From assembly GCA_964415355.1 (NCBI GenBank), contig CAYPYS010000007.1, positions 11,208 to 75,207 of the forward strand: a stretch of DNA of 64,000 bases, written 5' to 3'. Shown piece by piece: positions 3,395-63,657 of this stretch. A program made the position numbers and the translations under genes. Origin of the DNA: an uncultured Planctomycetia bacterium (lineage in GTDB: Bacteria; Omnitrophota; Gorgyraeia; Gorgyraeales; Gorgyraeaceae). Numbering within the stretch: position 1 is the first letter of the stretch; each line of letters opens with the position of its first letter. The notes under the pieces were generated by a model. That model was given only the letters and a program-made list of their open reading frames with translations. It was not told the DNA's origin and searched no databases.

Positions 3395-3420
3395 AGGTGG
3401 AGAAATTTTTTTATTTTTTG

Positions 3421-3449: not shown

Positions 3450-3553
3450 GTTTACACGCTTGTAATTTTCTAACAGCTTTTATATTTTTGGTTTTCAGTA
3501 TTTATGAAGCGTCTGGCTGAACCTCGACGATATAATTGATTTTTGACAATGAC

Positions 3554-3598: not shown

Positions 3599-3606
3599 AT
3601 TTTTGT

Positions 3607-3635
3607 CTTGACTTGAATTTTTTAGATGATATACT
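3607..3635 (+). promoter_or_regulatory. Sigma70-like promoter (proximal) for nrdJ
   Basis: TTGACT (3607-3612), 17 nt, TATACT (3630-3635). It sits just downstream of the NrdR-like boxes. Confidence 0.45.
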
Positions 3636-3655
3636 TATTTTTATCACATAACCTT

Positions 3656-3690
3656 AACTTTACACTTTAACGTTGTTAAAATGTAAAGTT
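3656..3690. repeat. Intergenic palindromic repeat, subfamily A (within the nrdJ 5' leader)
   Basis: AACTTTACACTTTAACGTTGTTAAAATGTAAAGTT. Ends 15 nt before the nrdJ RBS. Confidence 0.85.
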
Positions 3691-3711
3691 AGGGATTAAG
3701 AGGGGGTGAAG

Positions 3712-43924: not shown

Positions 43925-43980
43925 TTATATATTATGTAGTAGTTTATAAATATATTTATAAAGAGTTGAAAGGGGGATCT

Positions 43981-46900
43981 ATGTATCGCAGGCGCATCAA
44001 CAGGATCACATCCATCGTAACTCTTCTGACGTTTCTTTCCACCAGCACCCTTTACGCAGCACCATCCAGCCGTTCATTCTTCAAAAATAAAAAAGTAGAT
44101 CACAAGAAACTAAGTGACCAGAACGAAGACTTTATAGAGAAAAAAGGCTCTGTCCTTGATATTAAAAATGGCGCAAAGCCCCAGGCGCGCAGGAAAGAGG
44201 CAAGGGCCCTCCTTTCTTCCCATCTAAAGGATTTATCGCAGATACATATACCTTCTGAACTGGGAAGGATAATAGAGGTGTATGAAGGGGAAAAGGATAA
44301 ACGACAAGGAACAAGGCCTTTGATCGTTCATATCCAGGACCTCCACACAAATCCAGAGGCAGAACTTAACCTTGCCAAGATCCTCGAAATACTTATAAAA
44401 GACTATAGCATGAATCTGGTCTGCTCAGAAGGCGCAGACGGAGAGGTGGATACTTCTTCTGTCTCAAGCTTTCCGGATTACTCTGTGAGAGAAAAAGTAG
44501 CCAGGCTCTTCATAGATTCAGGAGAATTGACAGGAGAGGAGTATTTATCGATAACAAAATATCCTGATCTAGCCATATGGGGCATAGAGGATAGAGATAT
44601 ATACTTTAAAAACATAATAGAGTTCAATAAGATTATAAAATTCTCTCCCCAAAGCCACGTATTTATATCCCAGGCCAAAAAGGCCCTGGAGCAACTTAAG
44701 CCCAAGATATGCTCAAGGGAACTAAAAGACCTGGACCAGAAAGAAGCCTCCTATGATAACCAGGAGATAGAGGTAGCCCAGTATCTTAATTACCTCGCTG
44801 ATTATGTTGAGGCACTCGGAATCAATACAAAAGACTATAGAAATGTGAATCTATTGGCTGAATCCATAGACCAGGAAAAGACTATAAATCAACAAAAGAT
44901 AATGGATGAGTCGCAAAGTCTTTTGTTGAACCTTCAGGTCTCTCTTTCTAATAAAAGGATAAAAAAAGAGCAGGATGAACTTATGGCGCGCGCAGAGCTT
45001 TTCAGGGACCAGAAGATCTCACCCTTTTCATTCTATAGCTACTTAAAAGCCTTGGCTCTCAGGCACCTGAAAGAAGGTCTTTCAAAATACCCTGATCTTG
45101 ATCGCTACATCACCTATCTCACGAATGTAAACTCTTTAGACCAGGTGAAACTCTTCAATGAACTAAAAGATCTCGCATACGATATAAAACAGGCCCTCGC
45201 AAGGACGCCTGAACAAAAAAGATTTGTAAAGGCCCTCAGGAACATAAACTTTTTAGAATCTTTCTTTAACCTCAAGGTCTCAAACGAAGAATTAGACTAT
45301 TACCTGGCCAATAGAGACTCCCACAAGGTAGGATTCTTTCAGGATTTTCTGAAACCCACCCTGAAAAAATACAGACTATCGAGTTTCATAGATTATAATA
45401 CAGACCTTATAGACTCAAAGCTTCCTATCCTCGAAGACTTCTACAAGACTGTCAAAGACCGCGACGTAGCAATGGTCAAAAACTCCCTCTCTGAGATCGA
45501 AAACCGCAATTCAAAAGTCTCTGCCCTGATCGCAGGCGGTTTTCATACAAAGGGCATAACAACTTTACTAAGAGACAAAAACTATTCCTATATAGTAGTA
45601 TCCCCATACTCATCCACTGACATAGACGAGGAGAATTATCATTTTCTATTATCAGGTAAACGCAAGCCGCTGACAGAGCTATTGAATAAGCTTGATGCGT
45701 CAGAAATCGTAGACGGGCTTTCCTCAAGCTTAAGGGTAACGGTGGGTTTTGATCTTGATATGCACGATGGCTTAAGAGAAAAGGTTGCCCCTGTGCTCGC
45801 AGAAGAATTAGGCGTATCAGTGGAAGAGGTAACCCCGGAAAATATTCTTGGGAGAATAGTTCCGGTTCTTCTATTGCACAGAGAGGCCTCGAGCTGGTTT
45901 AGTAATTTTGACAAGATTATCGGCGTAGAGATAAAGCGGACTGCCAAGGGACTTGTAATGAAGATATCCCCTAAAGGTAGAGGGACAAAAGCAAGATATA
46001 TTATGGCCACAAGAGATAGCGGGTTTACTCTTGCGACAGCACGTGACTTCAATGCTGCAGGCGCGACAGTAATAGCTGTTGCTCCCGAGAAGAGCCCTCT
46101 GGCAGATACAGAGGATGATTCTTCACTTACCTATGCCGGAGGAGAGCAAGCTAGAAACGTAACTACTTATAATGACCTATCAGCGCAGGGCATCAGGGAT
46201 TCACTGGCGACACTTTCTCGCGACGGCGCTATTTTAGTCCTGGCTGACGGCACAAAGTGGACTGTGAGTGAATGGGATAGCCAGAGCAAGACCGCAGCGC
46301 TTACTGGTCTAGGAGATGCAAAAGGAGAAACGCAATACATATCAGTGCTGGATGACGGCCTGGTTGTCATAAGTGCTACTCCTCTTATTCGCGACTATAC
46401 AGTCGTGGCCATTGCATCGGATGCTTCTGTTTCTGTCAAGATAAAGGCATTGGCAGAGGATATTTTTACGAGTCCTGACAGGGCGCTTGCGACAGCCGCG
46501 CTTCAATATGGCCTGACCCGCGGATTCCAGCCGCTTATCAATTACATATCAGCGCTTCTTGAGAGAGAAGGCGTAAAGGCCCATCCTGAGACAGAGGTCG
46601 TAATGCTGGATGATGTCTTTGAAGGAGAAGATATTTTAGCAAGACTCCTCATAGAAGAAGGCGATATAGTTGTTTACAATAGCGGAAACCTGTCCGAGCA
46701 GGACAAAAGGATTTATACCAATCGTGGCGCAGAGTTAATAGAGATGGACCTCTCGACACCCGTTGGGATGCACAAGTTGTCCGGGCGTCTCGAGAACGGT
46801 AGTATAGACGCGGACCGCGTTAAATTTATTCAGGTTTTGTCCGAGAGAAAACTAGGGACAGAAACTATGTCGCAGTCTGCAAGAGTCGCGCTTTTAGCAC

Positions 46901-48084
46901 TGGCCAGAGAGCATGATTTTCTTTTAGTAGAAGACGCCAGGTACAGGGATCCTGTTTTGTCAGAAAACGAAAGTTTAAAGGCCATCGATTACGAAGGCCT
47001 TGATAGCAGGGTCGTGCAGCTTCGCAGTCTTTCGCAGCTTTTTGGGAAAGACGTAGAGATAGGTTCTGGTTATGCCGTGCTTCCGGCCGCGCTCGCGGTA
47101 AAGTTTGAGGCGACTAAAGGCTCTGTAACGCTTCACCCGAATTCAATGGCGCAGATACTTGTATATAAGGAATTATTGAGGAGATACGGAGATAGAGACA
47201 TTGAATTTTCTGAACTTACTGAGGCAGAGAAAAATCCGGAATTACCGGCCTGGCTCTCGGATAAATTATCTGACTATGGCAGAGGCATCAAGCTTTCAGA
47301 GATAAGAAGGATCCTGAAACTCATGGCCGACCCTGATTTGATTTCATTGGCCGGAGGCATACCTGCCGCCGAACTGTTTCCTTACGAACAGACCTATGAA
47401 CTTATTGCAGAATTCGGCGAAGGAGACTGGAGAACGGCTCTGACTGCTTCTCACAGTCAGGGCATTGAGAGGCTCAGGGCATTGGCAGCAAAGACTGTTG
47501 GCGCCGGCGCAGAGAATGTGCTTATAACAGATGGCTCGCAAGAGGGCCTTGACCTTTTAGGCCGCTTTGTCAGGTCTATTTCGTCAGAGAGGGATGACAG
47601 GGCTAATGAGGTCATAACCCAGAAGCCGACATACCTTGGATTCATGAGCGCTGCGGATCCATATGGATGCGAGGTCCAACCGTATGATCTGAATAATCTA
47701 GAAGGCATTGAAGAACTTAGAAAAGATCTGAGGACGAGAGCTGATGCCGGAGATGCCCTTCCTTCTCTTATGTATATAATGCCTACCTTTGGCAATCCAA
47801 ACGGAGACGTAATGAGTTTAGAGGAAAGGGTAAGGCTTTTGGAGGTAGCAGACGAGTTTGACATAGCCATTGCCGAAGACAATCCATATGGAGCGCTTAG
47901 ATACGAGGGGGAAGCTATCCCTACCTTGCTTGAGTTATCAAGAGAATCAGGCAATGCCACTGTTTTATACCTTGGCACAGTGTCCAAGACATTTACCCCG
48001 GGCATGAGGATAGGCTGGACAGTAGGGCCTGTGGAAATAATACAGCGTTTAACAGCATACAAGGAAGAGACGGTAAAAAGGTAG
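43981..48084 (+). CDS. Giant multi-domain protein 1, upstream segment: conserved hydrophobic N-terminal leader, ~1000-aa region of unknown function, two tandem class-I aminotransferase-fold domains; ends at an in-frame TAG that interrupts the second aminotransferase domain
   Basis: ATG 43981 follows the RBS AGGGGGA. Leader RRRINRITSIVTLLTFLSTSTLYAAP. The first aminotransferase-like domain is degenerate (SQLF in place of the SKxF lysine motif). The second is intact (LAGGIPAAELFP; PTFGNPNGDVMS; GTVSKTFTPGMRIGW). Stop TAG 48082-48084. Confidence 0.75.
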   Translation: MYRRRINRITSIVTLLTFLSTSTLYAAPSSRSFFKNKKVDHKKLSDQNEDFIEKKGSVLDIKNGAKPQARRKEARALLSSHLKDLSQIHIPSELGRIIEVYEGEKDKRQGTRPLIVHIQDLHTNPEAELNLAKILEILIKDYSMNLVCSEGADGEVDTSSVSSFPDYSVREKVARLFIDSGELTGEEYLSITKYPDLAIWGIEDRDIYFKNIIEFNKIIKFSPQSHVFISQAKKALEQLKPKICSRELKDLDQKEASYDNQEIEVAQYLNYLADYVEALGINTKDYRNVNLLAESIDQEKTINQQKIMDESQSLLLNLQVSLSNKRIKKEQDELMARAELFRDQKISPFSFYSYLKALALRHLKEGLSKYPDLDRYITYLTNVNSLDQVKLFNELKDLAYDIKQALARTPEQKRFVKALRNINFLESFFNLKVSNEELDYYLANRDSHKVGFFQDFLKPTLKKYRLSSFIDYNTDLIDSKLPILEDFYKTVKDRDVAMVKNSLSEIENRNSKVSALIAGGFHTKGITTLLRDKNYSYIVVSPYSSTDIDEENYHFLLSGKRKPLTELLNKLDASEIVDGLSSSLRVTVGFDLDMHDGLREKVAPVLAEELGVSVEEVTPENILGRIVPVLLLHREASSWFSNFDKIIGVEIKRTAKGLVMKISPKGRGTKARYIMATRDSGFTLATARDFNAAGATVIAVAPEKSPLADTEDDSSLTYAGGEQARNVTTYNDLSAQGIRDSLATLSRDGAILVLADGTKWTVSEWDSQSKTAALTGLGDAKGETQYISVLDDGLVVISATPLIRDYTVVAIASDASVSVKIKALAEDIFTSPDRALATAALQYGLTRGFQPLINYISALLEREGVKAHPETEVVMLDDVFEGEDILARLLIEEGDIVVYNSGNLSEQDKRIYTNRGAELIEMDLSTPVGMHKLSGRLENGSIDADRVKFIQVLSERKLGTETMSQSARVALLALAREHDFLLVEDARYRDPVLSENESLKAIDYEGLDSRVVQLRSLSQLFGKDVEIGSGYAVLPAALAVKFEATKGSVTLHPNSMAQILVYKELLRRYGDRDIEFSELTEAEKNPELPAWLSDKLSDYGRGIKLSEIRRILKLMADPDLISLAGGIPAAELFPYEQTYELIAEFGEGDWRTALTASHSQGIERLRALAAKTVGAGAENVLITDGSQEGLDLLGRFVRSISSERDDRANEVITQKPTYLGFMSAADPYGCEVQPYDLNNLEGIEELRKDLRTRADAGDALPSLMYIMPTFGNPNGDVMSLEERVRLLEVADEFDIAIAEDNPYGALRYEGEAIPTLLELSRESGNATVLYLGTVSKTFTPGMRIGWTVGPVEIIQRLTAYKEETVKR

Positions 48085-48200
48085 GCTTTGTGCCTGGCTG
48101 GCCGTTTTTAGGAGAGTCAAATCAGATCAGGCTGTCTTTCCCGACAAACTCCCCTGATATTATAGACGGCGCAGTAAAGGCAGTTAGTATTGCCATAAAG
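46380..48200 (+). other. Tandem class-I aminotransferase-fold domains in giant ORF 1 (first degenerate, second intact and interrupted by the frame break)
   Basis: Domain 1: ALLALAREHDFLLVEDARYRD...LRSLSQLFGKDVEIGSGYAV, with Gln where the PLP Lys is expected. Domain 2: ISLAGGIPAAELFP ... EDNPYGALRY ... GTVSKTFTPGMRIGW ... (frame break) ... IRLSFPTNSPDII. Confidence 0.65.
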
Positions 48201-51200
48201 GACAGCATGGGCAAAGGCACCCTGGCTATGGAAGGCCAGGTCCCTGCTGCTGATCTCGAGATCCTTACTAACTTTGGGACAGCCGGATGGCGAGGCACTG
48301 ATTTTACAGACGGCAATGTCAGGCGCATGGCACAGGCTGTTGCCGAAGTAGGGATAGCAGAAATCAATAAGCCTGTTTCTGAGATTCGCATGGCTGTCGG
48401 ATATGATGCAAGGCCTGGTGCCAGGGAAGATGCTATCCTCCTAACAGAGGTTCTGGTAGCGAACGGCATACACGTTGATTTCATAGATCAGGTATTGCCT
48501 TCACCCGTAATGATAGAGGTAACGCACGGAAGCGTTCCTGATTCAGAAAGATATGATCTAACGGTTTATTTTACCGCAAGTCATAATCCCGTGTATCAAT
48601 CGCTTGACCCGCTTAAGCAGTATAAAGGTATAAAGATATTAATAGAGGGTGTTCCTGCCGGCGATGAGTTTACCTCAAAGATATCAGCTCGAGCAAATGA
48701 CCTGGCCAAGAATGCCACATATAAATATATTCCCTTTGATCAGATTCCGGATATGCTTATTACGCATGACGTGGATCTTATTGCAAAAGATAGAGCTCGA
48801 CTTGAAAAAGCCTTTGGGCTTTCAGATTATGGAGTAAAAATAGCCAGATTATTTACTATATTTCCTAATTTGACGATTCGCATAAGTCCGATGAACGGTG
48901 CGACCGTGGAACAGATCGCTATATTCGATAAAATAGGCCTACCTGTAGTTTTTTATGATACCGCGCCTTTGCATGAAGTTATAGCCAGCGGAGAATACGA
49001 GCTTCAGACTGCAGACGGGATAATGAAAGGACCTGATCCGACAAAACCCTATAATCTTAATGCAGAGATGTTAAAAGATACAGAAGGGCAGGATGTCATA
49101 AAGTTTCTTATTGACGGAGACGGGGACCGTCTTGTTGTCGAGGATATAAACGGCAGGCCGATCACGCCTAATGAAATCGGTCTTATCATCGCCCATTATC
49201 TCCTGGAGCACAAGGGCGAGGAAGGTTACGTCGTCCGCACTTTGCCTACTACGAGAATGCTGGATCGTCTCGCAAGAAAATTTGGAATGCCTCTCGCGCA
49301 GACAGGAGTCGGCTCAAAGAACTTCGGGCCTTATACTGTTCAAGGGACCGAGCAGCGTCTTATCGTTGCCGTTGAAGAGAGCGGACATGTTTTCTTTAGA
49401 TTAGGCGATGAGATATTTGTCGACCATGCAGTAGCCGAGGCCTTGATCCTGCTCGATATCATGGCAACGACAGGCAAGACATTGACCCAGTATCTTGAGG
49501 AGGTCGAAAGAGAGCTGGGGACTATTCATTATAAACGGGATGCCGTGGCCAAGGAATTAGCGGTCCCTGGCCTGAAGCGCGGGCTATTGTGGCTGCGCAA
49601 TAATGATCCTGAGCTTTTGGCGCGCGCAATCGCAGATGAACTGGGTATGGATTTGAAAGGTTTTGATCCATTGGATAAGACCGGTGTCCTTGTAACCTTT
49701 GAAGATGATCAATGGATTTTACCTCGCGCATCAGGCACGACAAATACTATAAGGATTTACGCTGAGACGAGTTCTCAGGAAGATCTGGAAAAATGGATAA
49801 GCGGAGCAGAAAGGGTTTTGGTAAAACTTGTCAATGATATGGCTGCTCAAGGCATACTGGACAGGTCTCCGGATATCTGGTCGCATGTTATAGAAAGAGG
49901 AAAATCTCTCGCAGGCGATATCGTGAAGTGGCTCGGCTGGGTAGATGCGCCTGTGAGATTTTTGAAACGGATGTCAAAGATTAGAAGCTTGAAGTCAGAG
50001 CTTGCAGAGGAAGGCATAACCAATGTCGTTGTCCTTGGCACCGGAGGATCAGGCCTGGGTATAGGGACTTACGCCGAGGTCTTTGAAAAAGATAATTTAA
50101 TAGTCATTGATTTAGAAGATCCTCAGGGCATACAGAATGCAATGGCATGGGTCGATGAAAGGGGTTGGGATAAGACGATCTTTACTGTGCAGAGCAAATC
50201 CTGGGGCACTACTGAAACAAGAAACGCAGAGGCAGTTTTCAGGCAGGTCCTGGCTGATCGGATAGGGGCTGAAAATGTAGCCCGGCATTTTATAGCAGTG
50301 ACTGACGCAGGCAGGATAAAGGGAGAAGAGAGGGCTAATTTTAGGGAAATATTTGCGACTAATTATCCCGGAGATGCCAGGAAAGGTCGCGATATAGGTG
50401 GCAGATATTCTTCAGATTCCTTCTTTAGTCTTGTTCCGGCTGAATTAGCAGGCATACCCCATGAAGAGCTTTTAGTGGATGCCCGCGATGAATATAACCA
50501 GTTCAGGCGAGAGCTTGGAGAATATATAGGTGTCCGCATAGGCGCAGAGCTTAGCAGGTTCCACGGCCTTGGCAGAAATAAAATTACCTTTATATTAGAT
50601 AAAGGCCTTGAAGCATTTGGACCGTGGGTGCAGCAGCTTATAAATGAATCCGTAGGCAAGAACGAAGATACCGTAGTCTGTGTTACCGGAGAAGAATTTT
50701 CAGGAGATAGTTCTGTGTATGGGGATGACAGGGTCTTTGTGAAGATCGCTATAGGTAAAGGTCCTGCTATGCAAGTCACAGAACAAGGCATTGTTCTCAT
50801 AGTCGAAAGTAAAAATGACATAAATAGATTGCAATATAGGTTCAAGGTAGCTACTGCTATCCTGGCAAATCTAATGGGTGTGCACCCGTTTAATCAGCCG
50901 TTTGTCGAGAGCAGTAAATGGATTACAAAGGGTCTCCTGGATTCGGAGTTGACTCCTGAGCAGCTCACAGCAGAGCTTGTCGTAGCCGCATCTGAAAATT
51001 TAAAGAAATACGAAGGAGCAGAGGTCGCTATGCATTACACAGGAAGGACAGAAGACGCTATTGACATTGACCTGGAAACTGCTTCTGTGGAAGATGTATT
51101 GGCAGCATTTCTGGCAACAATAGAGTCAGGGGATTATATCTATCTTTCTCCTTATACATTTGATTCTCCTGCGCTGCAAAAGGCCTTTTCTGAGATAAGG

Positions 51201-51899
51201 AGTATTATAAGAGATAATCATCCTGCTCATCCAGCCACGCTTTTTGGCATTGGCTCAAGGAGCCAGCATTCCGACAATCAGCTTAATAACGCCACTGACC
51301 AGGCAACGGTATTGGCGTTTACCTTTGATTCGGCCGAAGGTGTTGATAGGGCAGTGCCCGGTAAAAATTATACACTGGCTCAGGAAAACATGGCGCATGC
51401 ATTGGGAACGGTAGGCGCGCTGGAGGATAAGGGAAGAAGGGTCATGAGGATCCACCTTTCCGATGAGTACAGGCAGGACATAACAAAATTAACAGCACTC
51501 TTTGAGAAAGCCGTTGCAAGGATGCGCGGAATGGAATTAGTCAGGTCATCGAGTAAGCAGCAGGCCGCGTCAATGGAACAGATCCTGGTCGTTCCCGCAA
51601 ACAAGGTAATAGCCGATAAAGAGGGTTTTGAAAAATGGATGTCATCCGGCCGCCAGGAAAATAACGCTGTGGTGATAGTAGCTTATGATGTCGACGAATA
51701 CAATCGGGTCAAGGAATTCGGGGACATTGCCTATATAAGGGTAGTCGGAAAGGATATTAGCGAGGAATACGACCTTAAGCTGCTCCAGATGTTTGCATTG
51801 TTCGGAAAAGATAATATGTTTGGCGGATTTATACTTGGGACACCGGCTGACCTGGATGATTTCAGATCAGTTTCCGAAGAGATATCCTCTGGCGTCTAA
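48090..51899 (+). CDS. Giant multi-domain protein 1, downstream segment: aminotransferase C-terminal tail, alpha-D-phosphohexomutase, phosphoglucose isomerase, conserved C-terminal domain; probably one gene with 43981-48084 via a frame disruption
   Basis: Frame 3 is open from 47934 and overlaps the upstream segment. NQIRLSFPTNSPDIIDGAVKAV matches an aminotransferase C-terminus. Phosphohexomutase loops GTAGWRG, TASHNP, DGDGDR, EESGH and RASGTTNTIRIY. PGI motifs GTGGSGLG, SKSWGTTET and DIGGRYSSDS. The C-terminal domain is shared with the 3703-aa ORF. Confidence 0.75.
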   Translation: MPGWPFLGESNQIRLSFPTNSPDIIDGAVKAVSIAIKDSMGKGTLAMEGQVPAADLEILTNFGTAGWRGTDFTDGNVRRMAQAVAEVGIAEINKPVSEIRMAVGYDARPGAREDAILLTEVLVANGIHVDFIDQVLPSPVMIEVTHGSVPDSERYDLTVYFTASHNPVYQSLDPLKQYKGIKILIEGVPAGDEFTSKISARANDLAKNATYKYIPFDQIPDMLITHDVDLIAKDRARLEKAFGLSDYGVKIARLFTIFPNLTIRISPMNGATVEQIAIFDKIGLPVVFYDTAPLHEVIASGEYELQTADGIMKGPDPTKPYNLNAEMLKDTEGQDVIKFLIDGDGDRLVVEDINGRPITPNEIGLIIAHYLLEHKGEEGYVVRTLPTTRMLDRLARKFGMPLAQTGVGSKNFGPYTVQGTEQRLIVAVEESGHVFFRLGDEIFVDHAVAEALILLDIMATTGKTLTQYLEEVERELGTIHYKRDAVAKELAVPGLKRGLLWLRNNDPELLARAIADELGMDLKGFDPLDKTGVLVTFEDDQWILPRASGTTNTIRIYAETSSQEDLEKWISGAERVLVKLVNDMAAQGILDRSPDIWSHVIERGKSLAGDIVKWLGWVDAPVRFLKRMSKIRSLKSELAEEGITNVVVLGTGGSGLGIGTYAEVFEKDNLIVIDLEDPQGIQNAMAWVDERGWDKTIFTVQSKSWGTTETRNAEAVFRQVLADRIGAENVARHFIAVTDAGRIKGEERANFREIFATNYPGDARKGRDIGGRYSSDSFFSLVPAELAGIPHEELLVDARDEYNQFRRELGEYIGVRIGAELSRFHGLGRNKITFILDKGLEAFGPWVQQLINESVGKNEDTVVCVTGEEFSGDSSVYGDDRVFVKIAIGKGPAMQVTEQGIVLIVESKNDINRLQYRFKVATAILANLMGVHPFNQPFVESSKWITKGLLDSELTPEQLTAELVVAASENLKKYEGAEVAMHYTGRTEDAIDIDLETASVEDVLAAFLATIESGDYIYLSPYTFDSPALQKAFSEIRSIIRDNHPAHPATLFGIGSRSQHSDNQLNNATDQATVLAFTFDSAEGVDRAVPGKNYTLAQENMAHALGTVGALEDKGRRVMRIHLSDEYRQDITKLTALFEKAVARMRGMELVRSSSKQQAASMEQILVVPANKVIADKEGFEKWMSSGRQENNAVVIVAYDVDEYNRVKEFGDIAYIRVVGKDISEEYDLKLLQMFALFGKDNMFGGFILGTPADLDDFRSVSEEISSGV
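48240..49900 (+). other. alpha-D-phosphohexomutase (PGM/PMM/GlmM-family) module within giant ORF 1
   Basis: All four signature loops are present: TASHNP (phosphoserine), DGDGDR (metal), EESGH (sugar) and RASGTTNTIRIY (phosphate). N-terminal GTAGWRG. Confidence 0.8.
50020..51100 (+). other. Phosphoglucose isomerase (SIS/PGI) module within giant ORF 1
   Basis: VVLGTGGSGLGIGTY. SKSWGTTETRN, matching the SKSGTTxET motif. DIGGRYSSDSFFSL, matching the PGI GGRYS signature. Confidence 0.75.
51573..51899 (+). other. Conserved C-terminal cassette shared by both giant ORFs (copy in giant 1)
   Basis: QILVVPANKVIADKEGFEKWMSSGRQENNAVVIVAYDVDEYNRVKEFGDIAYIRVVGKDISEEYDLKLLQMFALFGKDNMFGGFILGTPADLDDFRSVSEEISSGV. 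Confidence 0.8.
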
Positions 51900-51953: not shown

Positions 51954-51988
51954 AACTTCACGCTTTAACGTTGTTGAAGTGTGAAGTT
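51954..51988. repeat. Intergenic palindromic repeat, GC-shifted variant
   Basis: AACTTCACGCTTTAACGTTGTTGAAGTGTGAAGTT. Confidence 0.8.
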
Positions 51989-52079: not shown

Positions 52080-52520
52080 ATGAAGATATCTACAAGAATC
52101 AGATATGGCACGCGTTTGATGCTGGAATTAGGGCTTTCTTATAAGGAAGGCCCTATTTTTTTAAAAGATATTGCCAGGAAGCAGGAGATCTCTGAAAAAT
52201 ATTTAAGCCAGATCATCATTCCTCTAAAGGCTGCAGGCCTGATCAATACTTATAATGGCGCTCACAGCGGATATGTCCTAGCTAAATCTCCGCAAGAAAT
52301 AACAGTGAAAGAGATAGCAGAGATCGTAGAAGGGAATTTCGATCTTATAGAATGTGTGACTAACCCTTCCGGATGTGCACGCGCAGCTATGTGTGCGACA
52401 AGAGATCTATGGGATGATCTGGGCAGGACGATCGCGGAAAAACTCGATTCATTCACTATTAAGGATTTAATAGATAGATCCAAAGAAAAACAGGAAAATT
52501 CAACAGCATATAATATCTGA
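52080..52520 (+). CDS. Rrf2/IscR-family transcriptional regulator
   Basis: wHTH N-terminus MKISTRIRYGTRLMLELG...IFLKDIARKQEISEKYLSQII. Three clustered cysteines CVTNPSGCARAAMC, a pattern typical of Fe-S-binding IscR-like regulators. Confidence 0.8.
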   Translation: MKISTRIRYGTRLMLELGLSYKEGPIFLKDIARKQEISEKYLSQIIIPLKAAGLINTYNGAHSGYVLAKSPQEITVKEIAEIVEGNFDLIECVTNPSGCARAAMCATRDLWDDLGRTIAEKLDSFTIKDLIDRSKEKQENSTAYNI

Positions 52521-52545: not shown

Positions 52546-55500
52546 ATGACCTGGAAAATTATAAGAAAAATTACTTCTATTGTAATACTCATAACTTTTC
52601 TATCTACCAATGTCATATACGCGGCTCCGGGGCCCCGCAAGACACTAAGGGTGCCTCTGGGGTTTGCGAGAGAAAAGCTTTTAGAGCAGGAGCAAACAGG
52701 GCTTCCCACAAAGGAAATGCTTCTTATGATGGCCCAGGCAGTAGCCATGAGGATGGATGACGAATCCATACTCATGGATCTAGGGACTACTTTTTTCAAC
52801 ACAGCCTTTCGCAGAAATCTCGGCTCTCCTATCGAGATCCGCAGGAATAAAAATACAGGTACAGTCCATATCCGTTACAATGACAGATATATATCCATAA
52901 CAAGAAGCGGAAACATATCCGTGTCAAGCAGAATAAACTTTGATAAAGCCGAGCTCGTGATTGCCAGCATCAAGCCGCTTGTCGCATCCTCTTCTGATCC
53001 GACTGATAAAAAAGACAGGACAATAGGGTCTCTTCTCGGACTAATGGAGACATTTGCAGATCTCGGGCTCAAGCCAGGAGAGAAGATAACCATAAATGAC
53101 ATAATCCCTGAAAGAAAAAAGCAGGACGGTACATTGTATTCTCGTACGACAGTCTCAAGAGAATTTAAGGATGCAGTGGCGCTTGACCTTTTGAGGCTCA
53201 CAGGCAACAAGATAAAAAATAGCAATGAATATGAAGTCCTGAAGTCTTTTACGAGAGAACAGCTTAGTAGATTGCCGGGGCATATAAGGAAAAAGTTAAA
53301 CAGGGGCAGGATCAGATCTGATGAGATAGAAGAGCTCAGGCGCATATTCATAGCTGAGACATTAATGGGGCAAGGGACATTGCTGAAGGTATTCCTGGCA
53401 GGCCTTGCAGGTTTTCAGGAGGCGCTTGCAGACATACCTTATGATCTTTCAGGCGCAAATACTGAGACGGTCCAGAGTTTATTCACGGCTGTTGAAAACA
53501 TAGTTTTCCTGGCAAGGGATTTTGATAAAAAAGATCCTGCCTATGCCGAGGCTTATATCTATGAAAGCTTAGGGTTTGTTGATATTGATGGGAAAAGAAG
53601 ACTTGCTCTTGTCATCACGCCTTTTGAGGACAGGAGAAAGACCGGGTCCCTGGATGTCCTGGTATTTGATTCGCTTCTATCCGCGAATTATACGAGCCAC
53701 GCAATAAAAGCGACAGAAATAGAAATGGTGTCTACTATTGTCGGACGCCTGGATGAAAAGGATATTATCTCGCTTTCTCTTAAGTTCAGGGCAGAGTATC
53801 TGGATAACCCTGATGGCCCTGGCACGAGCGACACAAGGCGATCTGCCAAGGATTTTTTCCTGTATTTTGCCTCAAAGCGTAACGCAACCCAGGAAATATT
53901 GGATTTGGACGAAGAACTGATAGATGGTCTGGAGGGAAGGGACCTGGAAATAAAAGAACGCATGGCGCGCCTGAAAGAGGGCGTGTCGGATAAAGATCTT
54001 CTGGACGAATGGTTTATAGAAATTATGCAGGGAAAAGATACTCTTGTTCAGTACCTGTTATACACAGGGGACGCGGCTACATTCTGGTATGATTTACTGC
54101 TGGAGCTTGATTATACGCGCGCAATAAATGAGATGTTTTTATCAAGGCCTGACGCAATGACAACTTATGCCAGAAATGCATACGAACAGGCAGTCGTGGC
54201 CTCATGGATTTATATTCACCGCGCTGATTTTGGATCGCCTTTAGGAGAGAGGGCAGCCGAGGACAGAATAGAGGATTTTCAGCTGGCCCTGACATGGGAC
54301 ACGCTTGGCATACCAGGCCAGAAGGCGCTTGGCATGACAAAGGCAGAGTTTCCTGTGTGCTTGAATTGTGTTGGAAGGCCCTGTCAGCATGGGCCGCTGG
54401 GAAGCGTTGCTGCCCAGACGCGCACAAGGTCGGGTTTCGCCTCAGGCATAAGGTCTTTGATAGAAGACAATAATGTCTCTGCCAGCGTTCAGTTAGAGGG
54501 CGTATTTATATCCGAAGGAGTTTCATACTTAACCCATTTATATAATTATGCTGAACTATTGCTTATAGACCAGGCAGACGTCACCAGGTGGATGAATATG
54601 ACAGCGAGGGAACTGGACAGCGAAATAAGGTTGTTGACAGATGATGCAGACGCAATAGATCAAGAGGCAAAAAACATCGCAGAGCCGCATTGCCCGTTAG
54701 AGGTTCCTATCGCGGATATGTTCAGGCTTATGCGGCAGGATAGATTTGAAGAGGCGCTTGAGATCTTGAATAACAGCAGTTTTCTTGCAGGTATCTTCGG
54801 GCTCGTATGTCCCCAGGAACACCTGTGTCAGGCCGCGTGCGTCCAGGGCAGGCTGAGCGACAGGCCTTTGCCCATAGATATAGGAAAATTAGAATATCTC
54901 ATAGAGCTTACTTATATGAGGATAAACGGAGAATTGCCTATGCCTGAGGTCGCACCATTTACAGGAAAGTATGTCGCGATTATAGGTTCTGGCCCGGCAG
55001 GACTTCAGGCAGCATATGACCTGGCAAGAGAGGGTCACAAAGTGGTTTTATTCGAGCACCTGCATAAGGTCGGAGGTGTTTTAGTATATGGTATACCTAC
55101 ATTCAGGCTTCCTCCCGAGCTCCTCGAAGAAAAGGTCAGGATACTTAAGGAGATGGGCGTAAACTTTGTCACGAATGCTATTATAGGAGAAGACGGTGCG
55201 TATACCATAGAGGAGATGAGAAGATCATTTGACGCAGTAATAGTGGGCGTTGGCGCAGGCCAGTCAAACAAGATGGAGATAAGAGGCAAGGTGGTCCTTC
55301 TCGACGAAAAAACAGGAAGGGCAAGATTAGAGGTGCCTGAATACGCAAAGAGAGTGCCGATACCGGGCAGGGCCTTGAATGGCATTTATTCAGCGTATCA
55401 TTTTCTTTCATGGACATATCTGATGAATGCAATAAAGCCGGGTTATGATACGCCCATACCGCTCTCAAAAAATATACTCCAAGCATTTACGGAATCCAGG

Positions 55501-58500
55501 GCTACAGGAGAGGAAAAAGAAGTTACTGTGGTCGTAGAGGGCATAGGAAACGTGGCGCTGGACAGCGGCAGGACAGCTCTCAGATGGATAAATGTCCTGA
55601 ACAGGATATATGGCACAAATGTCAGGCCAAAGATCATATTCCTCTACAGGCGTCCGAGGGAAGAACTGGACCTCAAGGCGCGCGCAGAGGAATTAAAACA
55701 TCTCAGGGAAGAAGGCGTTGACACAATAGACATAGACGTATATGAGCTTCACCAGACCGTTGAATATCTCGGAAATACAAAGGGACATATAGAAGGAATA
55801 AGGGCCATAAGGTATGACAGAAAAGGCGCTAAGGAAGGCGTGCTGGTCGACATCCCCGTTGACATGGTTGTAGAAGCCCTGGGAGCAAAGCCGGCGACCG
55901 AGATATTAGGACCTTCCATACCTTTAAATAGATACGGGTATATCGAGATAGATAATCACAGGACAATGCAGGTAAGAGACATGGACGGCTCTGATGGCCT
56001 GGCGCCTGTATATGCTGTCGGAGACTGCGCAGAGGTGGACGCTATAGATGAAAGGATTATGGCGACCGCTGTCCTTGCTGCAACGCATGGAAAAAGGGCA
56101 TCCGAGGCACTCATAGAAAGACTGGATAATGAGACTGGCATGGTTCAGAGATATATAGATATCGATAAGGTATTTTTTAAAGCTACTCCATACAGGATGC
56201 ATGAGATATTGGAAAGGCGCAGGATAGGCAAAAGAGAGCTTGTATCCAGGCCGCTACGCGGAGATACGGGCAATGTTTTTAGCGAGCAGAGGATCGTGGA
56301 ATTTACTATTTATGCGCCTCATGTAGCCCGCAGGATCAGACCGGGCCAGTTTGTAACGCTGATGGCAGATGAATACAGCGAGAAAATACCTATAACATAT
56401 GTCGGTCTTGGAAAGATAAAAGGCAGTATACGCCTTGCCATCCTTGACGCAGGCGAATCAACAGTAAAAATAAATAATATGAAAAAGGGTGATTTGTTTT
56501 ACGCAGTCACCGGACCTGCAGGAGAACCTTCGATCTTTACAGGGCTGGCAGGCGAGGTAGACCTGGTGGGGTTGGGCAGTGGCATAGCCGCGATTGTCGG
56601 CATCGCCGAGCACAGGGCAGACCTGGACAGGAAATATAAAGAGTTGATGGCCAGGCTGGCAGGCAATTCCCGCGCAGATGTAGTCCTGTCGCTGATAGAA
56701 GAGATTTGGTCAGAATTGAGTCTTGCAAAGGATGATCTTTTGCACTATATAGTCGATGCGATAAGAGACAGGGATTATAATGAAGCAAAGAATCTGTTGA
56801 CAGCACTTGCCTACTCTATTGAACAGGATTTTCCGGCGAGCGAGCTTATAGCAGATGCAGAAGCACTGGTTGATACGATAACCATGCTCGAGGATTCTGT
56901 AGAAGACGAGGATGAATTGAATCTGCTTGTAAAACAGGAGGTCTATCAGGCGATAGACGATATATGGGAAGAGTTTGAGATATTAAAGAGAGAGAAACTA
57001 TTAAGGGAAATCAGTGATTTTGTATCTTCCGGAAATTACAAAAATGCATCTAATGCCTTGAATGCCGTTATCGGCGCAGGCTTTGAGACAAAGGTATTTC
57101 TGGCTGTCGGGAATAAGGATCTTTTGATGTATAAGACCGAGCTGGAAGAGGCTGTTGGCAGGGAGAACATATTCATAGCGCTTGAGGATGCCGAGGGCTT
57201 TGATCCGCATGCCGAAGGATATGCCAGCCTGATAGCGCATGAGAACAGGTTTTTTACAGGTTATGGCACTATTGCTTTTGGGGATTATTTAGGCAGGACG
57301 CATGATCCTATTAGCGGATTGTTGGTAGCAGGACCTGCGTTCGCAATGAATCTTTTTGTGCCATTGGTCAGAGAAGCAAACAGGCCTGATATCCTGAGTA
57401 CGAGAGACGTGTGGATGAGTACTAACCCGCCCATGTACTGTGCCTACGGCGGTTGTTTGATGTGTCTGGTGGCTACAGAACAGGCGATTCCGTGGCGCGG
57501 GTGTTTAGGTCCTGAGGCAGAGGCAGATATGCTTATCGGCGATTCTATTGTCAAGGGGCTTGAAATGAGCAAGCCTCAAGACATAATGCCGGGCGTTATA
57601 TTCAGCACGTCACCTTCTGTTGACAGGGAGCAAGCGATATCTGATATAGTGCAGGCGCTTGATGAGATTCTTTATATGCCTACTGTAGATGGTAAATTAT
57701 TTGTTGCCATATCTGATGCAAAGGGTTCGTTTATCGCTGAGTTAAGAAATGGTATTTTAGAGGAGAGATTATCTGACGAGGATATTGATGCAGTGCTCGA
57801 GAATATTGATTGGGAAAGACTAGGTGTTTTTAAGCCAGGCCATAAGATAAGGTTTGCAGGTAGGATATCCGATGTCTCAGGATTAGAGCTTGATAGGGTC
57901 ATGGAATTGCTCGGACTGACAATGCAGGGTGGAAGCGGTGCAGAAGATTCTGATTCCGGGATGACGCTCGATGATTTATTCAGTAGGAGCTTGGATCTCT
58001 CGATACTTGGCATAGAGGTCATCGGAGAATTCCGCGAGGTCTCTATATCGCCTTCCGGTTTTTCACGGCTCCGGGCGTTCCTTGAGGAGATCGGCGATAG
58101 ACAGAAGTTGGAAGAAATTTTGGGACTCGAAGGAAGTGAGTTTATTTTTGTTATGAATGGCGCGAATGAGCTTGTCGCGATTGTGATCCGCAACGAGACC
58201 AGGCAGAAAGAGCTTCTATGGATAGAGGGAGAGGCATCGTCCGAACTTTTCAGCTATCTGACTCTGAGAGCCTCTCTGCGTGGCAGTTCTATATCCGCGG
58301 ACCTGACAGTGGAGGAGATAAAACCCGGCGCAATACTCGGACCCGGCGCGACCACTACTCCCGCAAGCTCTGCCCTGGCAAAGACAGGGACGTGGACCAC
58401 GAAATACGCAGAGCATGATCTTGATGCGTGCGTGCAGTGTGGCCTGTGCGCACTGGTATGTCCCGAAGGCGCGATAGCGTTTGATATGGAGCCGGCGCTG

Positions 58501-61500
58501 AATACAGGCAGGCTGGTCCTTCCGACAAATCCTGATTATTGCAAGGGCTGCGATGCCTGCGTGGTACATTGTCCTTTAAAAGGATACGCGCTTAAGATGA
58601 TAGAAAAGACAGACCTTCGCCAGGTAGCAGTATCTCTGGATACGAATCCTGAGGGAAGAGGCGTTGTTATCGAAGGCGCTCCGGCATTACAGTTTGAAGG
58701 GCTGTTTAAGGAAGGCATTGATAGATTCAAAAAGGCATTAGGGCTCGATGTAGTTGAGATAATCAGCGAGAGTGAATCTTTTGTGCAGGTGAGGTATGAG
58801 AGAGGTGACATAGCATATCTTTTTACATTCGATAAGAAAAATACAAGATTGATCTTGAAACCATTGAGGACATTTGCCGTCGTTGGCCTTGAGAGTAAAA
58901 ATATTGATCTGGCAGATGCATTGCGCAGCAGGGGATTTGCGGTTACCGGCTTGATTTCTACTAAAGACAGAGGTTTTAGAGATAAATTAATGGAGGCCGA
59001 GAGACAGGGTATCAGTGTTTATGCGATAGAAGCAGGTTTGCTAAACCCTGGTATTAGCGGCAGTCTTCAGGCATTGCTTAATGACATCGAACGCCTGCGT
59101 CTTGCTAGATTTGTCGCGGTTGACACAGAGACGATCAGGGAGATAATCGGCCTGGACGAATACACGAAACTCGTCGAGGAGATAAACGAATATACACATA
59201 ATTCTATAATAAACTCTGTGGATTTGTTGCCGACAGGCAACACAGACTTTGATGAGGTCATGGCGAGTTTTGCTCCCGAATGGCAGGACCAGGTTCGCGA
59301 CCTCGCGCCCGGACACGGCCTATGCCCCGGCTGCGGTCAGCCGACAGACACGCACCTTGTATTAAAGGTAGCGGATGAACATGGAATGGCGCCGGTGGGT
59401 GTCATTACGACAGGCTGCCAGGAAGTCTCGACCACTAACTGGCCTTTTAATTCATGGCGCATACCAATGGTCCACGGAAACTATACAGCATCAGCCGCAA
59501 TCGTCAGCGGTATCTTCCGTGTCTATCAGTGGTTCAAAAAGATGGGCGTAAGTGTTTACGGGGATAAAGAAATCTTGCCTATAGTTATTATGGGAGACGG
59601 TGGTTTTGCAATAGGGCTAAATGTAATATCAGGCGGCCTGGAAAAGGGATTACCGATTTTATATCTGGTCGAGAATAATTCAGGCACTCAGAATACGGGC
59701 GCGCAGGCATCCACGCTTTCGATGCCGGGCATAACTGCGCAAGGCGCCTCACAGGTAAAGACCACGCAAGGCGTGTATATACCTGATATAGCAAAGGCGC
59801 ACGGACCTAACGTCTATTACGCAAGGGTTTCCAATGCATATCCCGAAGATTTTGAGAGAAAATTAAACCGCGCAATGGAATGGATAAAACAGGGAAGAGG
59901 ACCTGCGGTCATAGAGTCTTTTAACACCGCATGCCCTACCGGCTGGAAGTCTGACGCGACACAGAGCCAGGAAGAAACCTCTCTTTCGGTCCAGACAGGC
60001 GTTGGCATGACTGTGCTTTTTGAGCAGGTCGGGAATCGCATAAGGATAACGCAACCACCTCTTCTAAGAGACGGAAAGATATATATAAATACAGAATATA
60101 TGCGAAGCCTGGAATATGAGTTAGGTCATTTAAGGAATGCCGGCGGCAAGAGGCTGTTATCTGACAGACAGGTGGCTTCCATGATTTCGCATATCAAGAA
60201 GAGAAGGGAATTTATTTTGGCAAGAGAGCTTGAAAGAAGACAGCCTAAAAAACCAGGCCTGCCGTTTGTCCAGCTCGACTTAGATGCGTTAAAGAACCTG
60301 CTTGTCCTTCATTCGTTCAACCTGCCTCTGGAGTCAGACCTATTGATAGACAGGTTGGATGTCCTGGGCCTTTCCGGAGACGAGATAGAGGACATTGCGC
60401 AGCATCGGTCAGAGGGTAATGAATTCAGAAACAGGCAGGACGTGCTTCGGTTTATAACCGATGTGCGTTACAGAGAGGTTACGGAAAGAATACTTGATAT
60501 ATATGACACAGTCGAGATCAGGGATTTTATTATGGAATGGACAGAGACAAAGGAAGAGGGAAATATCGATTTCGAGGAGACCGTTGTATTTGAGAAGATA
60601 GAAGATATTTTGAAAGTCCCGGGCATAGGGCCAGTGACGTATGATGCCGTAAGTCCGTATCTTACATTAGAACCGAGAAGACCTCATATATTCGAATACT
60701 TATCGAGACAGGGAAGATTCAGGAGGCTTCTTGGCTGGGATGACGAGGCGTTTCTGGGAGACATGCAGCGAGATGTGGACGCGCATATACTTAGGCTGAT
60801 GGCGCAGCATGAAAACGACAGGGCTTTCTTTGAGAACTTTGATAATTTACTGGCCAGAGGAGAAAAAATCCCGGTAGAGCAGTTCAGGTACAAGTCAGCA
60901 AGGGAGGCGCATGACAAGGCCCTTGTTCCTGCTAGAGTCATACCTGCGGATCCGGAAAGAAACATCAGGATTTTAGAACGCAGGGCAAGGCTAGGGGATA
61001 GGGTTTTTGAAGAACGCTGGCATGGAAGAGGCGGCCAGGGTGCTATTACTGCGGCAACGCTTCTGGCAACATATGCGGGCGAGGTAGAAGGTATAGGCAT
61101 TCAGGCGTTTCCGCACTTTGGGGTCGAACGCGCAGGTGCGCCTGTAAAGGCATATGTCAGAATGGGTAATAATATAAAACAGCATGACCCTGTTACGGAA
61201 CCTGATGTAGTAGTGGTTATAGATGAGTCTTTGCTGGAACTTCCCGAAGTGTTGGAAGGTATAAAGCCGGGCGGTTTTCTATTGGTGAATAGCAAAAAGC
61301 CGGCTGAAAAAATACTGGAAGAATTAAGGGCTAAAGGCAATGCGCTTAAGGATATTACTCTTTTTAGCGTGGACGCTACCGGTATAAGCATAAAACACAT
61401 GGGAAGAAATCTCCCTAATATTCCTATGCTGGCTGCGAGGATTATGGTTTCGAGGCTTACTGATGCAGACTTGGGTCCGGCAGAAGGCGCCACGGATTAC

Positions 61501-63657: not shown

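Follow-up and report, generated by a model that had tools for sequence, protein, structure and literature searches.

A giant gene upstream of the rRNA operon

The DNA analysed here, referred to below as the window, is a 64-kb stretch of contig CAYPYS010000007.1 (assembly GCA_964415355.1) from an uncultured bacterium of the phylum Omnitrophota. Close to its right end it carries a giant gene whose predicted product combines, on one chain, a pair of reductase modules resembling NfnB and NfnA with all four catalytic modules of a 2-oxoacid:ferredoxin oxidoreductase (OFOR) of the pyruvate:ferredoxin oxidoreductase (PFOR) kind, the latter being called the POR half below. The open reading frame (ORF) is preceded by a Shine-Dalgarno sequence (aaggaga) 7 nt 5' of its start and, according to both the ORF list and the translation, runs uninterrupted with zero internal stops, just as a first-pass annotation of the same DNA had described it (one uninterrupted 11.1-kb frame). 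A stop-free frame of 3703 codons cannot be due to chance at 45% GC, and the strand opposite it contains short ORFs alone (<=173 aa). The gene and the successive segments of its product are the following.

52546-63657, + strand: giant gene, ATG start, 3703 codons plus stop, ~410 kDa
52546-52629, + strand: N-terminal leader, aa 1-28, MTWKIIRKITSIVILITFLSTNVIYA followed by AP
52630-54336, + strand: N-terminal unmatched segment, aa 29-597, no Pfam match at E<=1
54337-56145, + strand: NfnB/GltD-like module, aa 598-1200, with PDB and NCBIfam matches
56218-57525, + strand: NfnA/PyrK-like module, aa 1225-1660, found by NCBIfam and PDB searches at about 1248-1660
57526-58350, + strand: segment S2, aa 1661-1935, no Pfam match, joins the Nfn-like half to the POR half
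58351-58605, + strand: PorD-like 2x[4Fe-4S] ferredoxin, aa 1936-2020, matched by Pfam Fer4 families and PDB 9BT4_G
58606-59295, + strand: segment S3, aa 2021-2250, alpha/beta linker domain between PorD and PorB
59296-60165, + strand: PorB (beta) thiamine pyrophosphate (TPP) module, aa 2251-2540, Pfam TPP_enzyme_C at 2333-2457
60166-60990, + strand: segment S4, aa 2541-2815, no family, conserved in the orthologues P0002 and P0007
60991-61590, + strand: PorG (gamma) module, aa 2816-3015, Pfam POR at 2829-3008 (E=2e-27), PDB 2RAA_A
61678-62820, + strand: PorA (alpha) module, aa 3045-3425, Pfam POR_N at 3065-3286 and PFOR_II at 3313-3411
62821-63654, + strand: C-terminal module, aa 3426-3703, no Pfam match

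An identical 3703-aa protein is encoded on a separate NCBI contig (75 kb) and on a JGI contig (55 kb), and fragments of it occur in ENA and JGI assemblies. A Logan assembly (locus L001) encodes a colinear 3729-aa orthologue with 55% identity (P0002), whose alignment with the giant protein is almost gap-free from residue ~300 to ~3650. A scan with the upstream tyrosyl-tRNA synthetase (TyrRS), which is 71-80% identical in about 25 metagenome-assembled genomes (MAGs), assigned the window to Candidatus Omnitrophota and yielded two further orthologues. The MAG UBA10183 (L014) contains one at 50% identity that is incomplete, as the end of the locus cuts the gene, and the other (L022, 37% identity) has a full-length form of 3969 aa at 38% identity (P0007), intact on two independent contigs (L047 and L048). 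In the four-way family alignment all Cys ligands and all nucleotide, TPP and CoA motifs are kept wherever sequence is present, including GxGxxG, YRR, GDG-NN, CPTGW and YPTTP. Colinear orthologues with intact motifs indicate that all modules are under purifying selection.

Because such orthologues, found in independent Omnitrophota assemblies, keep both motifs and synteny, the giant gene is confirmed as a real single gene and not an assembly misjoin. The opposite explanation, that an assembly chimera or a decaying pseudogene resembles one ORF, could draw on the metagenomic origin of the assembly and on a frameshift at an A5 run in the neighbouring giant gene, but it is effectively refuted by the identical protein on the NCBI and JGI contigs, by orthologues intact in L001, L047 and L048 and partial in L014, and by the retention of every catalytic motif at 38% identity; the same evidence counters the chimeric misjoin that the first-pass annotation had named as one way in which it might be wrong. 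A genetic-code artefact was ruled out as well, since a reassigned stop would make ORFs read with table 11 shorter, not longer.

The POR half

Annotation with hidden Markov models recovered six modules in the order NfnB/GltD, NfnA/PyrK, PorD, PorB, PorG and PorA. Modules, order and motifs are those proposed at first, although that account covers about half of the protein and misses the leader and the shared C-terminus. Pfam, NCBIfam and PDB searches agree on the four Por modules, which stand in the order delta-beta-gamma-alpha and contain the motifs GDG-x24-NN, GRGGQG and GYPTTPASS that had been noted for them.

The PorD-like module has a Pfam 4Fe-4S dicluster (1955-2013) with two conserved CxxCxxCxxxCP motifs (C1962, C1965, C1968, C1972 and C1999, C2002, C2005, C2009) and barely passes the cutoff of TIGR02179 PorD_KorD (60.8 vs 60.05). 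PorB shows GDG-x24-NN at 2350-2378 (GDG 2350-2352, NN 2377-2378) and the [4Fe-4S] ligands C2260, C2263, C2291 and C2463, as expected of a beta subunit; these motifs are conserved in P0002 and P0007, and the module matches NCBIfam PRK11865 (132 bits) and the PDB chains 5C4I_C and 9BT4_C. PorG has GRGGQG at 2827-2832 and passes TIGR02175, the model of the pyruvate/2-ketoisovalerate family (154 vs a cutoff of 81). The alpha-subunit motif GYPTTPASS lies at 3075-3083 of PorA, with YPTTP at 3076-3080, and is conserved in P0002; the module matches PRK09622 (185 bits), PorA_Arch (177 bits) and the PDB chains 6CIN_A and 1B0P_A. From the motif context of the Desulfovibrio africanus PFOR, we take E3106 and R3157, likewise conserved in P0002, to be the positions of the TPP-activating Glu and of the Arg that binds the substrate carboxylate.

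With its delta and gamma models passing their cutoffs, the POR half is assigned to the pyruvate/2-ketoisovalerate family, which gives a candidate 2-oxoacid substrate. None of the equivalog models, those of PorA, PorB and VorB among them, reaches its cutoff, and the same holds for TIGR02176, the model of single-chain PFOR of the NifJ/YdbK type (185 vs 911). The module order of NifJ-type single-chain PFOR is alpha-gamma-delta-beta. All four catalytic modules and their motifs are common to the giant protein, to PorABCD/VorABCD (PDB 9BT4) and to the PFORs of D. africanus (1B0P) and Moorella thermoacetica (6CIN), from which the giant protein differs by its delta-beta-gamma-alpha order and the extra linkers S3 and S4.

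The NfnB/NfnA-like reductase half

PDB and NCBIfam matches support the NfnB/GltD-like and PyrK/NfnA-like modules of the first-pass annotation, with GSGPAG at 814-819 and MYCAYGGCLMC at 1630-1640. In the NfnB-like module, Pfam detects Fer4_20 (712-786) and Pyr_redox_2 (810-1182). It has the features of NfnB, conserved in four family members: a 2x[4Fe-4S] domain with seven Cys and the Glu of CPQE (C605, C608, C613, C716, C755, (E758), C761 and C765), the GxGxxG of the FAD site, and an NADPH-type site formed by GIGNVALD (999-1006) and YRR (1034-1036). The three N-terminal Cys were assigned by motif, not alignment, and the remainder by alignment with 4YLF_B; an insertion of ~93 aa (620-712) separates the third Cys from the fourth. 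Against the PDB the module scores 198 bits with Thermotoga maritima NfnB (4YLF_B), 177 with Pyrococcus furiosus NfnII (5VJ7_A), 175 with P. furiosus NfnI (5JCA_L) and 120 with GltD (2VDC, 6S6S).

The NfnA-like module contains a flavin-binding beta-barrel (EKIPIT 1279-1284, GPAG 1323-1326), an NAD-site (GLGSGIA 1342-1348) and a [2Fe-2S] site with four Cys ligands (C1632, C1637, C1640 and C1653). Its PDB matches 4YLF_A (60 bits), 5JCA_S (54) and 5VJ7_B (50) align to 1248-1360 and to the [2Fe-2S] region, consistent with an NfnA fold, and its best NCBIfam match is PRK06222. In 4YLF_A and 5JCA_S the position of C1632 is taken by the Asp of 'NPIMVDGTGMCGAC'; the four-Cys site is thus PyrK-like and is conserved in P0002 and P0007.

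These matches support a reductase pair of Nfn type, with NfnB/NfnA as the closest solved relatives, ahead of GltD and dihydropyrimidine dehydrogenase. Strict membership in NfnAB is disfavoured: the four-Cys [2Fe-2S] site, two large insertions and scores below the curated Nfn cutoffs (TIGR01316 248 vs 472, PRK12778 258 vs 1103, PRK06222 88.5 vs 220) argue against it.

Leader, linkers and segments without family

About 1900 residues (about 51% of the protein) are conserved yet have no Pfam match, even at E<=1 (aa 29-597, 620-712, 1355-1510, 1661-1935, 2021-2250, 2541-2815 and 3426-3703). These segments are 30-60% identical between orthologues and nearly indel-free, and a permissive Pfam scan of the seven of them returned a weak helix-hairpin-helix (HhH) motif alone, located in S4 (aa 2681-2707, HHH_3). 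In the N-terminal segment, identity over residues 280-597 is 46-60% with P0002 and 31% with P0007; for S2 the corresponding values are 38-48% and 31%. According to an alignment of 11 proteins, S3 is common to all single-chain PORs of delta-beta-gamma-alpha order; a PDB profile search with these 11 sequences gave weak, generic matches to Rossmann-like or designed proteins and no nucleotide, flavin or cofactor loop. A flavodoxin-like built-in carrier was considered for S3 and rejected, as the phosphate-binding loop is missing.

In a segment-wise BLAST search against the representative sequences, the N-domain, S2, S3, S4 and S5a match only P0007 and the fragment P0008. The N-domain, S2, S4 and S5a thus appear specific to the Nfn-POR fusion family, and since the segments joining the two halves are conserved only there, this argues that the Nfn-POR junction itself is under selection.

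The leader opens with a basic n-region, has a hydrophobic core of 17 aa, ends in an AxA-like c-region, and is the sole transmembrane (TM)-like segment of the giant protein outside known domain cores. It is followed by LRVPL (aa 34-38), conserved as LR[VP]P[LM]. The same leader is present on the neighbouring giant gene, here called the sister gene, and on many enzymes in related MAGs. At the other end, the giant protein and the product of the sister gene share a C-terminus, with 45% identity over the last ~150 aa (BLASTP 107 bits, E=3e-25). In L014 the PFOR-Nfn body follows the other type of N-terminal module, that of the sister gene, and the non-catalytic modules are therefore interchangeable.

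Genomic context

The immediate surroundings of the giant gene comprise the following features.

52080-52520, + strand: Rrf2-family regulator (Fe-S/redox-sensing type), Pfam Rrf2 E=5e-35, 25 nt upstream of the giant ORF
63659-63687, no strand: 29-nt gene-boundary palindrome TTTACACTTTAACGTTGTTGAAATGTAAA, starting 2 nt past the stop of the giant gene
63720-63747: perfect sigma-70 consensus promoter (TTGACA-16-TATAAT, TG upstream), between the giant and 16S genes
63826-63852: terminator-like hairpin, between the giant gene and 16S rRNA
from 63906: 16S rRNA gene

The Rrf2 protein has a C-x7-C-x5-C three-Cys motif, and the 38%-identical orthologue is likewise preceded directly, on two contigs, by an Rrf2 with 64% identity, which suggests Fe-S- or redox-responsive control of the giant gene. 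No gene-boundary palindrome occurs in the 25-nt gap between 52520 and 52546, so the Rrf2 gene and the giant ORF are probably co-transcribed. The order LytB-RpsA-TyrRS-(Rrf2)-giant-16S rRNA is shared by the window and L047, and L001 shows TyrRS-giant-16S; in all three the giant gene is directly upstream of the rRNA operon, an adjacency that probably explains why MAG contigs end there.

The palindrome TTTACACTTTAACGTTGTTGAAATGTAAA has ~38 sites in the window vs 0 expected from shuffled sequences, and starts 1-12 nt past the stop codon of nearly every gene (for example at 2069, 3363, 6570, 7375, 9994, 13013, 17281, 19427, 23174, 27080, 30594, 33869, 38580, 42643, 43855, 51901 and 63659). It would represent a gene-boundary hairpin, terminator-like or similar to repetitive extragenic palindromic (REP) elements, of unusual regularity. 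Since it follows almost every other gene and was not found inside the 11.1-kb giant ORF, it also supports the single-gene status of the latter. The exact form was not found in any of the 46 related loci, with loose variants in L014, L016 and L022 only. Listed TTG/GTG starts at 8362, 13027, 39501, 40175 and 42657 fall within the palindromic element; these are probably false, with the true starts downstream.

Distribution and other POR fusions

A profile of residues 1520-2690, a region that spans the Nfn-POR junction, was compared exhaustively with 1.84 billion representatives by HMMER. Eight proteins matched at E<=1e-30, and only two clusters, the query's own and that of P0007, cover the junction end to end, in addition to one fragment cluster. 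A scan based on the full-length alignment with narrow peptide patterns gave no relative in genome contigs and a generic GltD-like locus in metagenome contigs.

The other long matches share the delta-beta-gamma-alpha POR backbone and have different partners. P0022 (2693 aa) consists of the leader, a kinase-like N-terminus, Pta and POR; in our reading of this N-terminus, which has no Pfam match, it may be acetate/butyrate-kinase-like (ILGVNPGSTSTKIA), and P0022 would then carry the conversion of pyruvate to acetate plus ATP on one chain. P0019 (at least 2232 aa) joins GDH and Pta to POR. In P0010 (5785 aa) the sister-type N-terminal module and many enzymes and TM segments are followed by PorD, PorB and PorG. 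The sister-type N-terminal module is also found with the POR backbone in P0011, and P0009, P0012 and P0024 are PORs without partners. The history that needs the fewest steps is a single ancestral fusion of delta-beta-gamma-alpha order, to which the Nfn pair was later added N-terminally in one sublineage.

A second kind of fusion is represented by P0017 (1049 aa), P0018 (705 aa) and P0013 (492 aa), compact proteins that otherwise look unrelated, in which a 2Fe-2S domain is combined with ferredoxin domains and PorB and, in some cases, also with a GltD-like (PRK12814-type) NAD(P)H flavoprotein. NCBIfam has no dedicated family for them. Linking NAD(P)H to an OFOR by gene fusion has therefore arisen more than once.

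Comparison with known systems

In the eukaryotic pyruvate:NADP+ oxidoreductase (PNO) of Euglena and Cryptosporidium, PFOR is fused on one chain to an NADP-reducing flavoprotein resembling cytochrome P450 reductase (CPR). The functional idea is the same, whereas the giant protein differs by its NfnAB-like N-terminal reductase, its POR order and its bacterial host. Pfam detects no flavodoxin, FAD_binding_1 or NAD_binding_1 domain in it, in agreement with the earlier statement that its reductase is unrelated to the CPR-like module. PNO, earlier designated the closest analogue, is not the sole one, and two prokaryotic precedents are closer. One is the phenylglyoxylate dehydrogenase (PadEFGHI) type, an NADH-dependent multi-subunit OFOR in which NAD+ is reduced by way of an extra Fe-S flavoprotein subunit; the models for PadE, PadG and PadI match the gamma, alpha and delta/beta modules weakly, all far short of their cutoffs (PadG 111 vs a cutoff of 700), and Pad-type enzymes have separate subunits and no NfnA-like partner, unlike the giant protein. 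The other is the GltD-like::PorB fusion of P0017 and P0018, where a GltD/NfnB-type flavoprotein is covalently joined to the TPP subunit of POR, as in the giant protein. These are compact (about 1050 aa), contain the beta subunit alone, lack the NfnA/PyrK-like module, the leader and the unmatched linkers, and are 33% identical to the giant protein in the common parts. We know of no experimental characterisation of P0017-type fusions.

Compared with NfnAB, residues 598-1660 are closest to NfnB/NfnA among solved structures, and their B-then-A order corresponds to pattern C of the published Nfn architectures, none of which (patterns A-D) is fused to POR (PMC6405883). Common to both are the seven Cys with CPQE, the FAD and NADPH (YRR) sites, the flavin barrel and the C-terminal [2Fe-2S] cluster; the giant protein differs by the covalently attached complete POR, the four-Cys site, the ~93-aa and ~155-aa insertions and scores far below cutoff.

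Multi-enzyme metabolic giant proteins have been described as a class in Omnitrophota, and a signal peptide or TM helix was reported for 94% of long proteins in this phylum, with metabolic domains placed outside (bioRxiv 10.64898/2026.06.07.730766), while post-translational cleavage of Omnitrophota giant proteins has been proposed by West-Roberts et al. (bioRxiv 10.1101/2023.11.21.568195). The protein studied here fits this class by phylum, by at least 8 non-overlapping Pfam domains and by its N-terminal leader; with 3703 aa it is below the threshold of these surveys (>=10,000 aa), and it forms a coherent redox unit. POR, Nfn and GltD-type modules are not mentioned in the 2023 and 2026 surveys. 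Glycolysis, PFOR, Pta/Ack and Rnf have been predicted for Gorgyraia and Velamenicoccia in an Omnitrophota survey that mentions PFOR as a pathway step only (PMC10066038), and OFORs are absent from the partners named in a review on Fe-S flavoenzymes of the GltD-like kind. The first-pass annotation did not recognise the Nfn-POR architecture as described, and our literature search likewise found no published description, with Kizina et al. 2022 (OP3 LiM genome and proteome) lying outside the comparison. A complete POR joined to an NfnB/NfnA pair with family-specific linkers, leader and C-terminal module thus appears to be undescribed and very rare, whereas its parts and the functional idea are already known from PNO, Pad-type enzymes and P0017-type fusions.

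A proposed electron path and its alternatives

One chain holds sites for the whole series TPP -> 3x[4Fe-4S] -> 2x[4Fe-4S] -> FAD(NADPH) <-> [2Fe-2S] -> FAD(NAD). The interpretation towards which we lean, by a modest degree, is that the ~410-kDa polypeptide is a self-wired 2-oxoacid:NAD(P)+ oxidoreductase, possibly a confurcating one. PorA and PorB would together form the TPP site at which pyruvate (or a related 2-oxoacid) reacts with CoA, and two electrons would exit singly via the PorB [4Fe-4S] cluster and the two PorD clusters. The latter would pass them directly to the [4Fe-4S] pair of the NfnB-like module, at the end that corresponds to the ferredoxin-docking end of NfnAB, so that diffusible ferredoxin would not be needed. 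The electrons would then reach the FAD beside the NADPH-type site (GxGxxA plus YRR) and reduce NADP+, and the NfnA-like module, with its [2Fe-2S] cluster, FAD and NAD-type site, would serve as a second pyridine-nucleotide port. The leader would most likely serve as a tether to the cytoplasmic membrane, leaving the catalytic mass on the cytoplasmic side.

In an Nfn mode the reaction would be pyruvate + CoA + NADH + 2 NADP+ -> acetyl-CoA + CO2 + NAD+ + 2 NADPH and, if reversed, the enzyme would act as an NADPH-driven pyruvate synthase. Alternatively, it may be a simple 2-oxoacid:NAD(P)+ oxidoreductase. This non-bifurcating mode is equally possible, because the [2Fe-2S] ligation differs from that of NfnA and because P. 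furiosus NfnII, which is just as close a relative, is reported to act as a simple, non-bifurcating NADPH:ferredoxin reductase (PMC8097209).

Several observations weigh against the self-wired interpretation or parts of it. Four Cys surround the [2Fe-2S] site, where the ligands in NfnA are three Cys and one Asp, so bifurcation is not simply to be assumed; together with a ~155-aa helical insertion in the NAD domain of the NfnA-like module (aa 1355-1510) and equivalog scores below cutoff, this makes Nfn-type bifurcation by the reductase pair uncertain. Of the earlier proposal that the modules form a pair of the Nfn type, the kinship therefore holds, as the best PDB matches are NfnB/NfnA, and the implied bifurcation does not automatically carry over. 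That the PorD clusters lie within electron-transfer distance of those of the NfnB-like module is an assumption of the proposal, and the family models point to no more than a candidate substrate for the POR half. AlphaFold2 models of the C-terminal module (3-sequence alignment, pLDDT 54) and of the N-domain (residues 270-720, 2 sequences, pLDDT 47) are unusable. The leader resembles a cleavable Sec signal peptide and, because Sec would export the chain unfolded, this conflicts with cytoplasmic loading of Fe-S clusters, flavin and TPP; the same contradiction applies to the leader-bearing PFK, GDH and other enzymes of the clade. Finally, redox-unlinked enzymes are fused in the same way in this clade (aminotransferase-PGM-PGI, and the leader on GDH and PFK), so fusion alone is no proof of wiring.

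The last point leads to the strongest rival, a co-localisation scaffold whose two halves work through free ferredoxin, fused for the sake of stoichiometric expression, as may be, or of membrane tethering or gene economy in an ultra-small cell. The giant protein appears to be one case of a clade-wide fusing and extending of cytoplasmic enzymes, and this habit makes co-localisation in place of direct electron wiring a serious rival. In the sister gene this leader and this C-terminal module recur on a fusion of aminotransferase, PGM and PGI; in related MAGs the leader is found on a Glu/Leu/Phe/Val dehydrogenase (GDH, 1220 aa), PFK (986 aa), a Cys/Met pyridoxal-phosphate (PLP) enzyme, saccharopine dehydrogenase and a class II aldolase-like protein; the POR backbone itself is fused to Pta and a kinase-like module (P0022), to GDH and Pta (P0019) and to many enzymes (P0010); and multi-enzyme metabolic giant proteins are a class in Omnitrophota according to the 2026 preprint. 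Nevertheless, PorD is kept as a built-in ferredoxin directly downstream of the Nfn pair, and the linker S2 is conserved and family-specific, S3 being conserved too, if common to delta-beta-gamma-alpha PORs in general. We consider the scaffold less likely than the wired enzyme. Even a fusion without contact would raise local concentration, and functionally the two may differ in degree only. Accordingly, the earlier description of an all-in-one 2-oxoacid:NAD(P)+ oxidoreductase is upheld as regards the cofactor sites, all of which lie on one chain, and is weakened by co-localisation as regards their coupling.

A more specific version of the self-wired enzyme seems doubtful to us. Here the protein would work without ferredoxin as a pyruvate(+NADH):NADP+ oxidoreductase with flavin-based electron confurcation or, running backwards, as a bifurcating pyruvate synthase driven by NADPH. 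The Sec-type leader, which many central-metabolic enzymes of the clade also bear, would point to an unusual arrangement of core catabolism in these ultra-small cells, at the membrane or in a non-cytoplasmic compartment. If true, this would be the first example in nature of a bifurcating module wired directly to the enzyme that provides or uses up its low-potential electrons.

It is also conceivable, but improbable, that the 410-kDa product is a polyprotein that is cleaved, or translated from internal starts, into conventional PorABGD and NfnAB subunits. Cleavage has been proposed for Omnitrophota giants (bioRxiv 10.1101/2023.11.21.568195) and the inter-module segments are long, but they are conserved like folded domains and nearly gap-free across orthologues. 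Pfam finds no protease domain in the giant protein, and promoter-like sites within the ORF are not enriched (25 vs 20.1 +/- 4.5 in shuffles).

Least convincing among the functional alternatives, and very improbable in our view, is that the leader is a true Sec signal, placing the enzyme, along with other leader-bearing enzymes of central metabolism, in the periplasm or in an internal membrane-bounded compartment like those of some Planctomycetes-Verrucomicrobia-Chlamydiae (PVC) bacteria. The textbook n-h-c layout with an AxA-like site, the lack of any other TM segment, the occurrence of the same leader on many enzymes of the clade and the 2026 preprint, in which 94% of long Omnitrophota proteins have a signal peptide or TM helix with metabolic domains outside, would all fit export. 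However, insertion of Fe-S clusters, FAD and TPP is cytoplasmic, as are CoA, NAD(P)H and, for the leader-bearing PFK, ATP; Sec passes unfolded chains and there is no consistent twin-arginine motif; and basic residues C-terminal of the hydrophobic core (R31, K32 and R35, and KNKK in the sister gene) disfavour translocation.

Significance of a single-chain PFOR-Nfn

PFOR and Nfn, both central to anaerobic redox metabolism, are normally linked by free ferredoxin, and a natural single-chain PFOR-Nfn would offer a defined stoichiometric system for studying how low-potential electrons enter a bifurcating flavin site. If self-wired, the giant protein would be a third independent coupling of 2-oxoacids to NAD(P)+, besides PNO and Pad-type enzymes, and a possible engineering template for ferredoxin-free pyruvate-to-NADPH or NADPH-to-pyruvate modules. 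In models of fermentative Omnitrophota, electrons are taken to run PFOR -> ferredoxin -> Rnf, an assumption that would change if in this lineage part of the PFOR flux goes directly to NADPH. Extended cytoplasmic enzymes bearing a leader also raise the question of how central metabolism is organised in ultra-small, possibly predatory bacteria.

The sister giant gene and leader-bearing relatives

Upstream of the Rrf2 gene lies the sister gene.

43981-51899, + strand: sister giant gene, ORFs 43966-48084 and 48090-51899, ~2640 aa
51901-51929 and 51957-51985: palindrome copies closing the sister giant gene

Its product contains, in order, the same leader, a ~650-aa N-terminal module, an aminotransferase, PGM, PGI and the shared C-terminal module. 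An A5 run (48075-48079) interrupts the gene and leaves it as two ORFs; one extra A there would restore a continuous ...EETVKKVGFVPGWPFLGESNQIRLSF..., and no boundary palindrome is found at the junction 48084/48090; the ORF pair is almost certainly one gene of ~2640 aa. The aminotransferase also seems to be short of ~85 residues of the Pfam model (positions 243-330). Sequencing error, a genuine frameshift and degeneration of the domain are all possible causes.

Five loci with leader-bearing enzymes (L003:3099-6758, L014:11282-14239, L015:11252-13201, L036:11319-13955 and L008:6447-8768) are located just downstream of TyrRS, and their products have long extensions without Pfam match. A further ORF of at least 3207 aa (L018:3265-12885) has the sister-type N-terminal module and no Pfam domain at E<=1e-5. 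This ~650-aa module (sister-gene aa ~35-690, window 44080-46050) shows the motifs HIQDLH...EG and GGFHTKG...Y.VVSP, has no Pfam match, and recurs at L014:14269-16275, at L018:3370-5151 and in the N-termini of P0010 and P0011. In several giant proteins it sits between the leader and the LRVPL motif.

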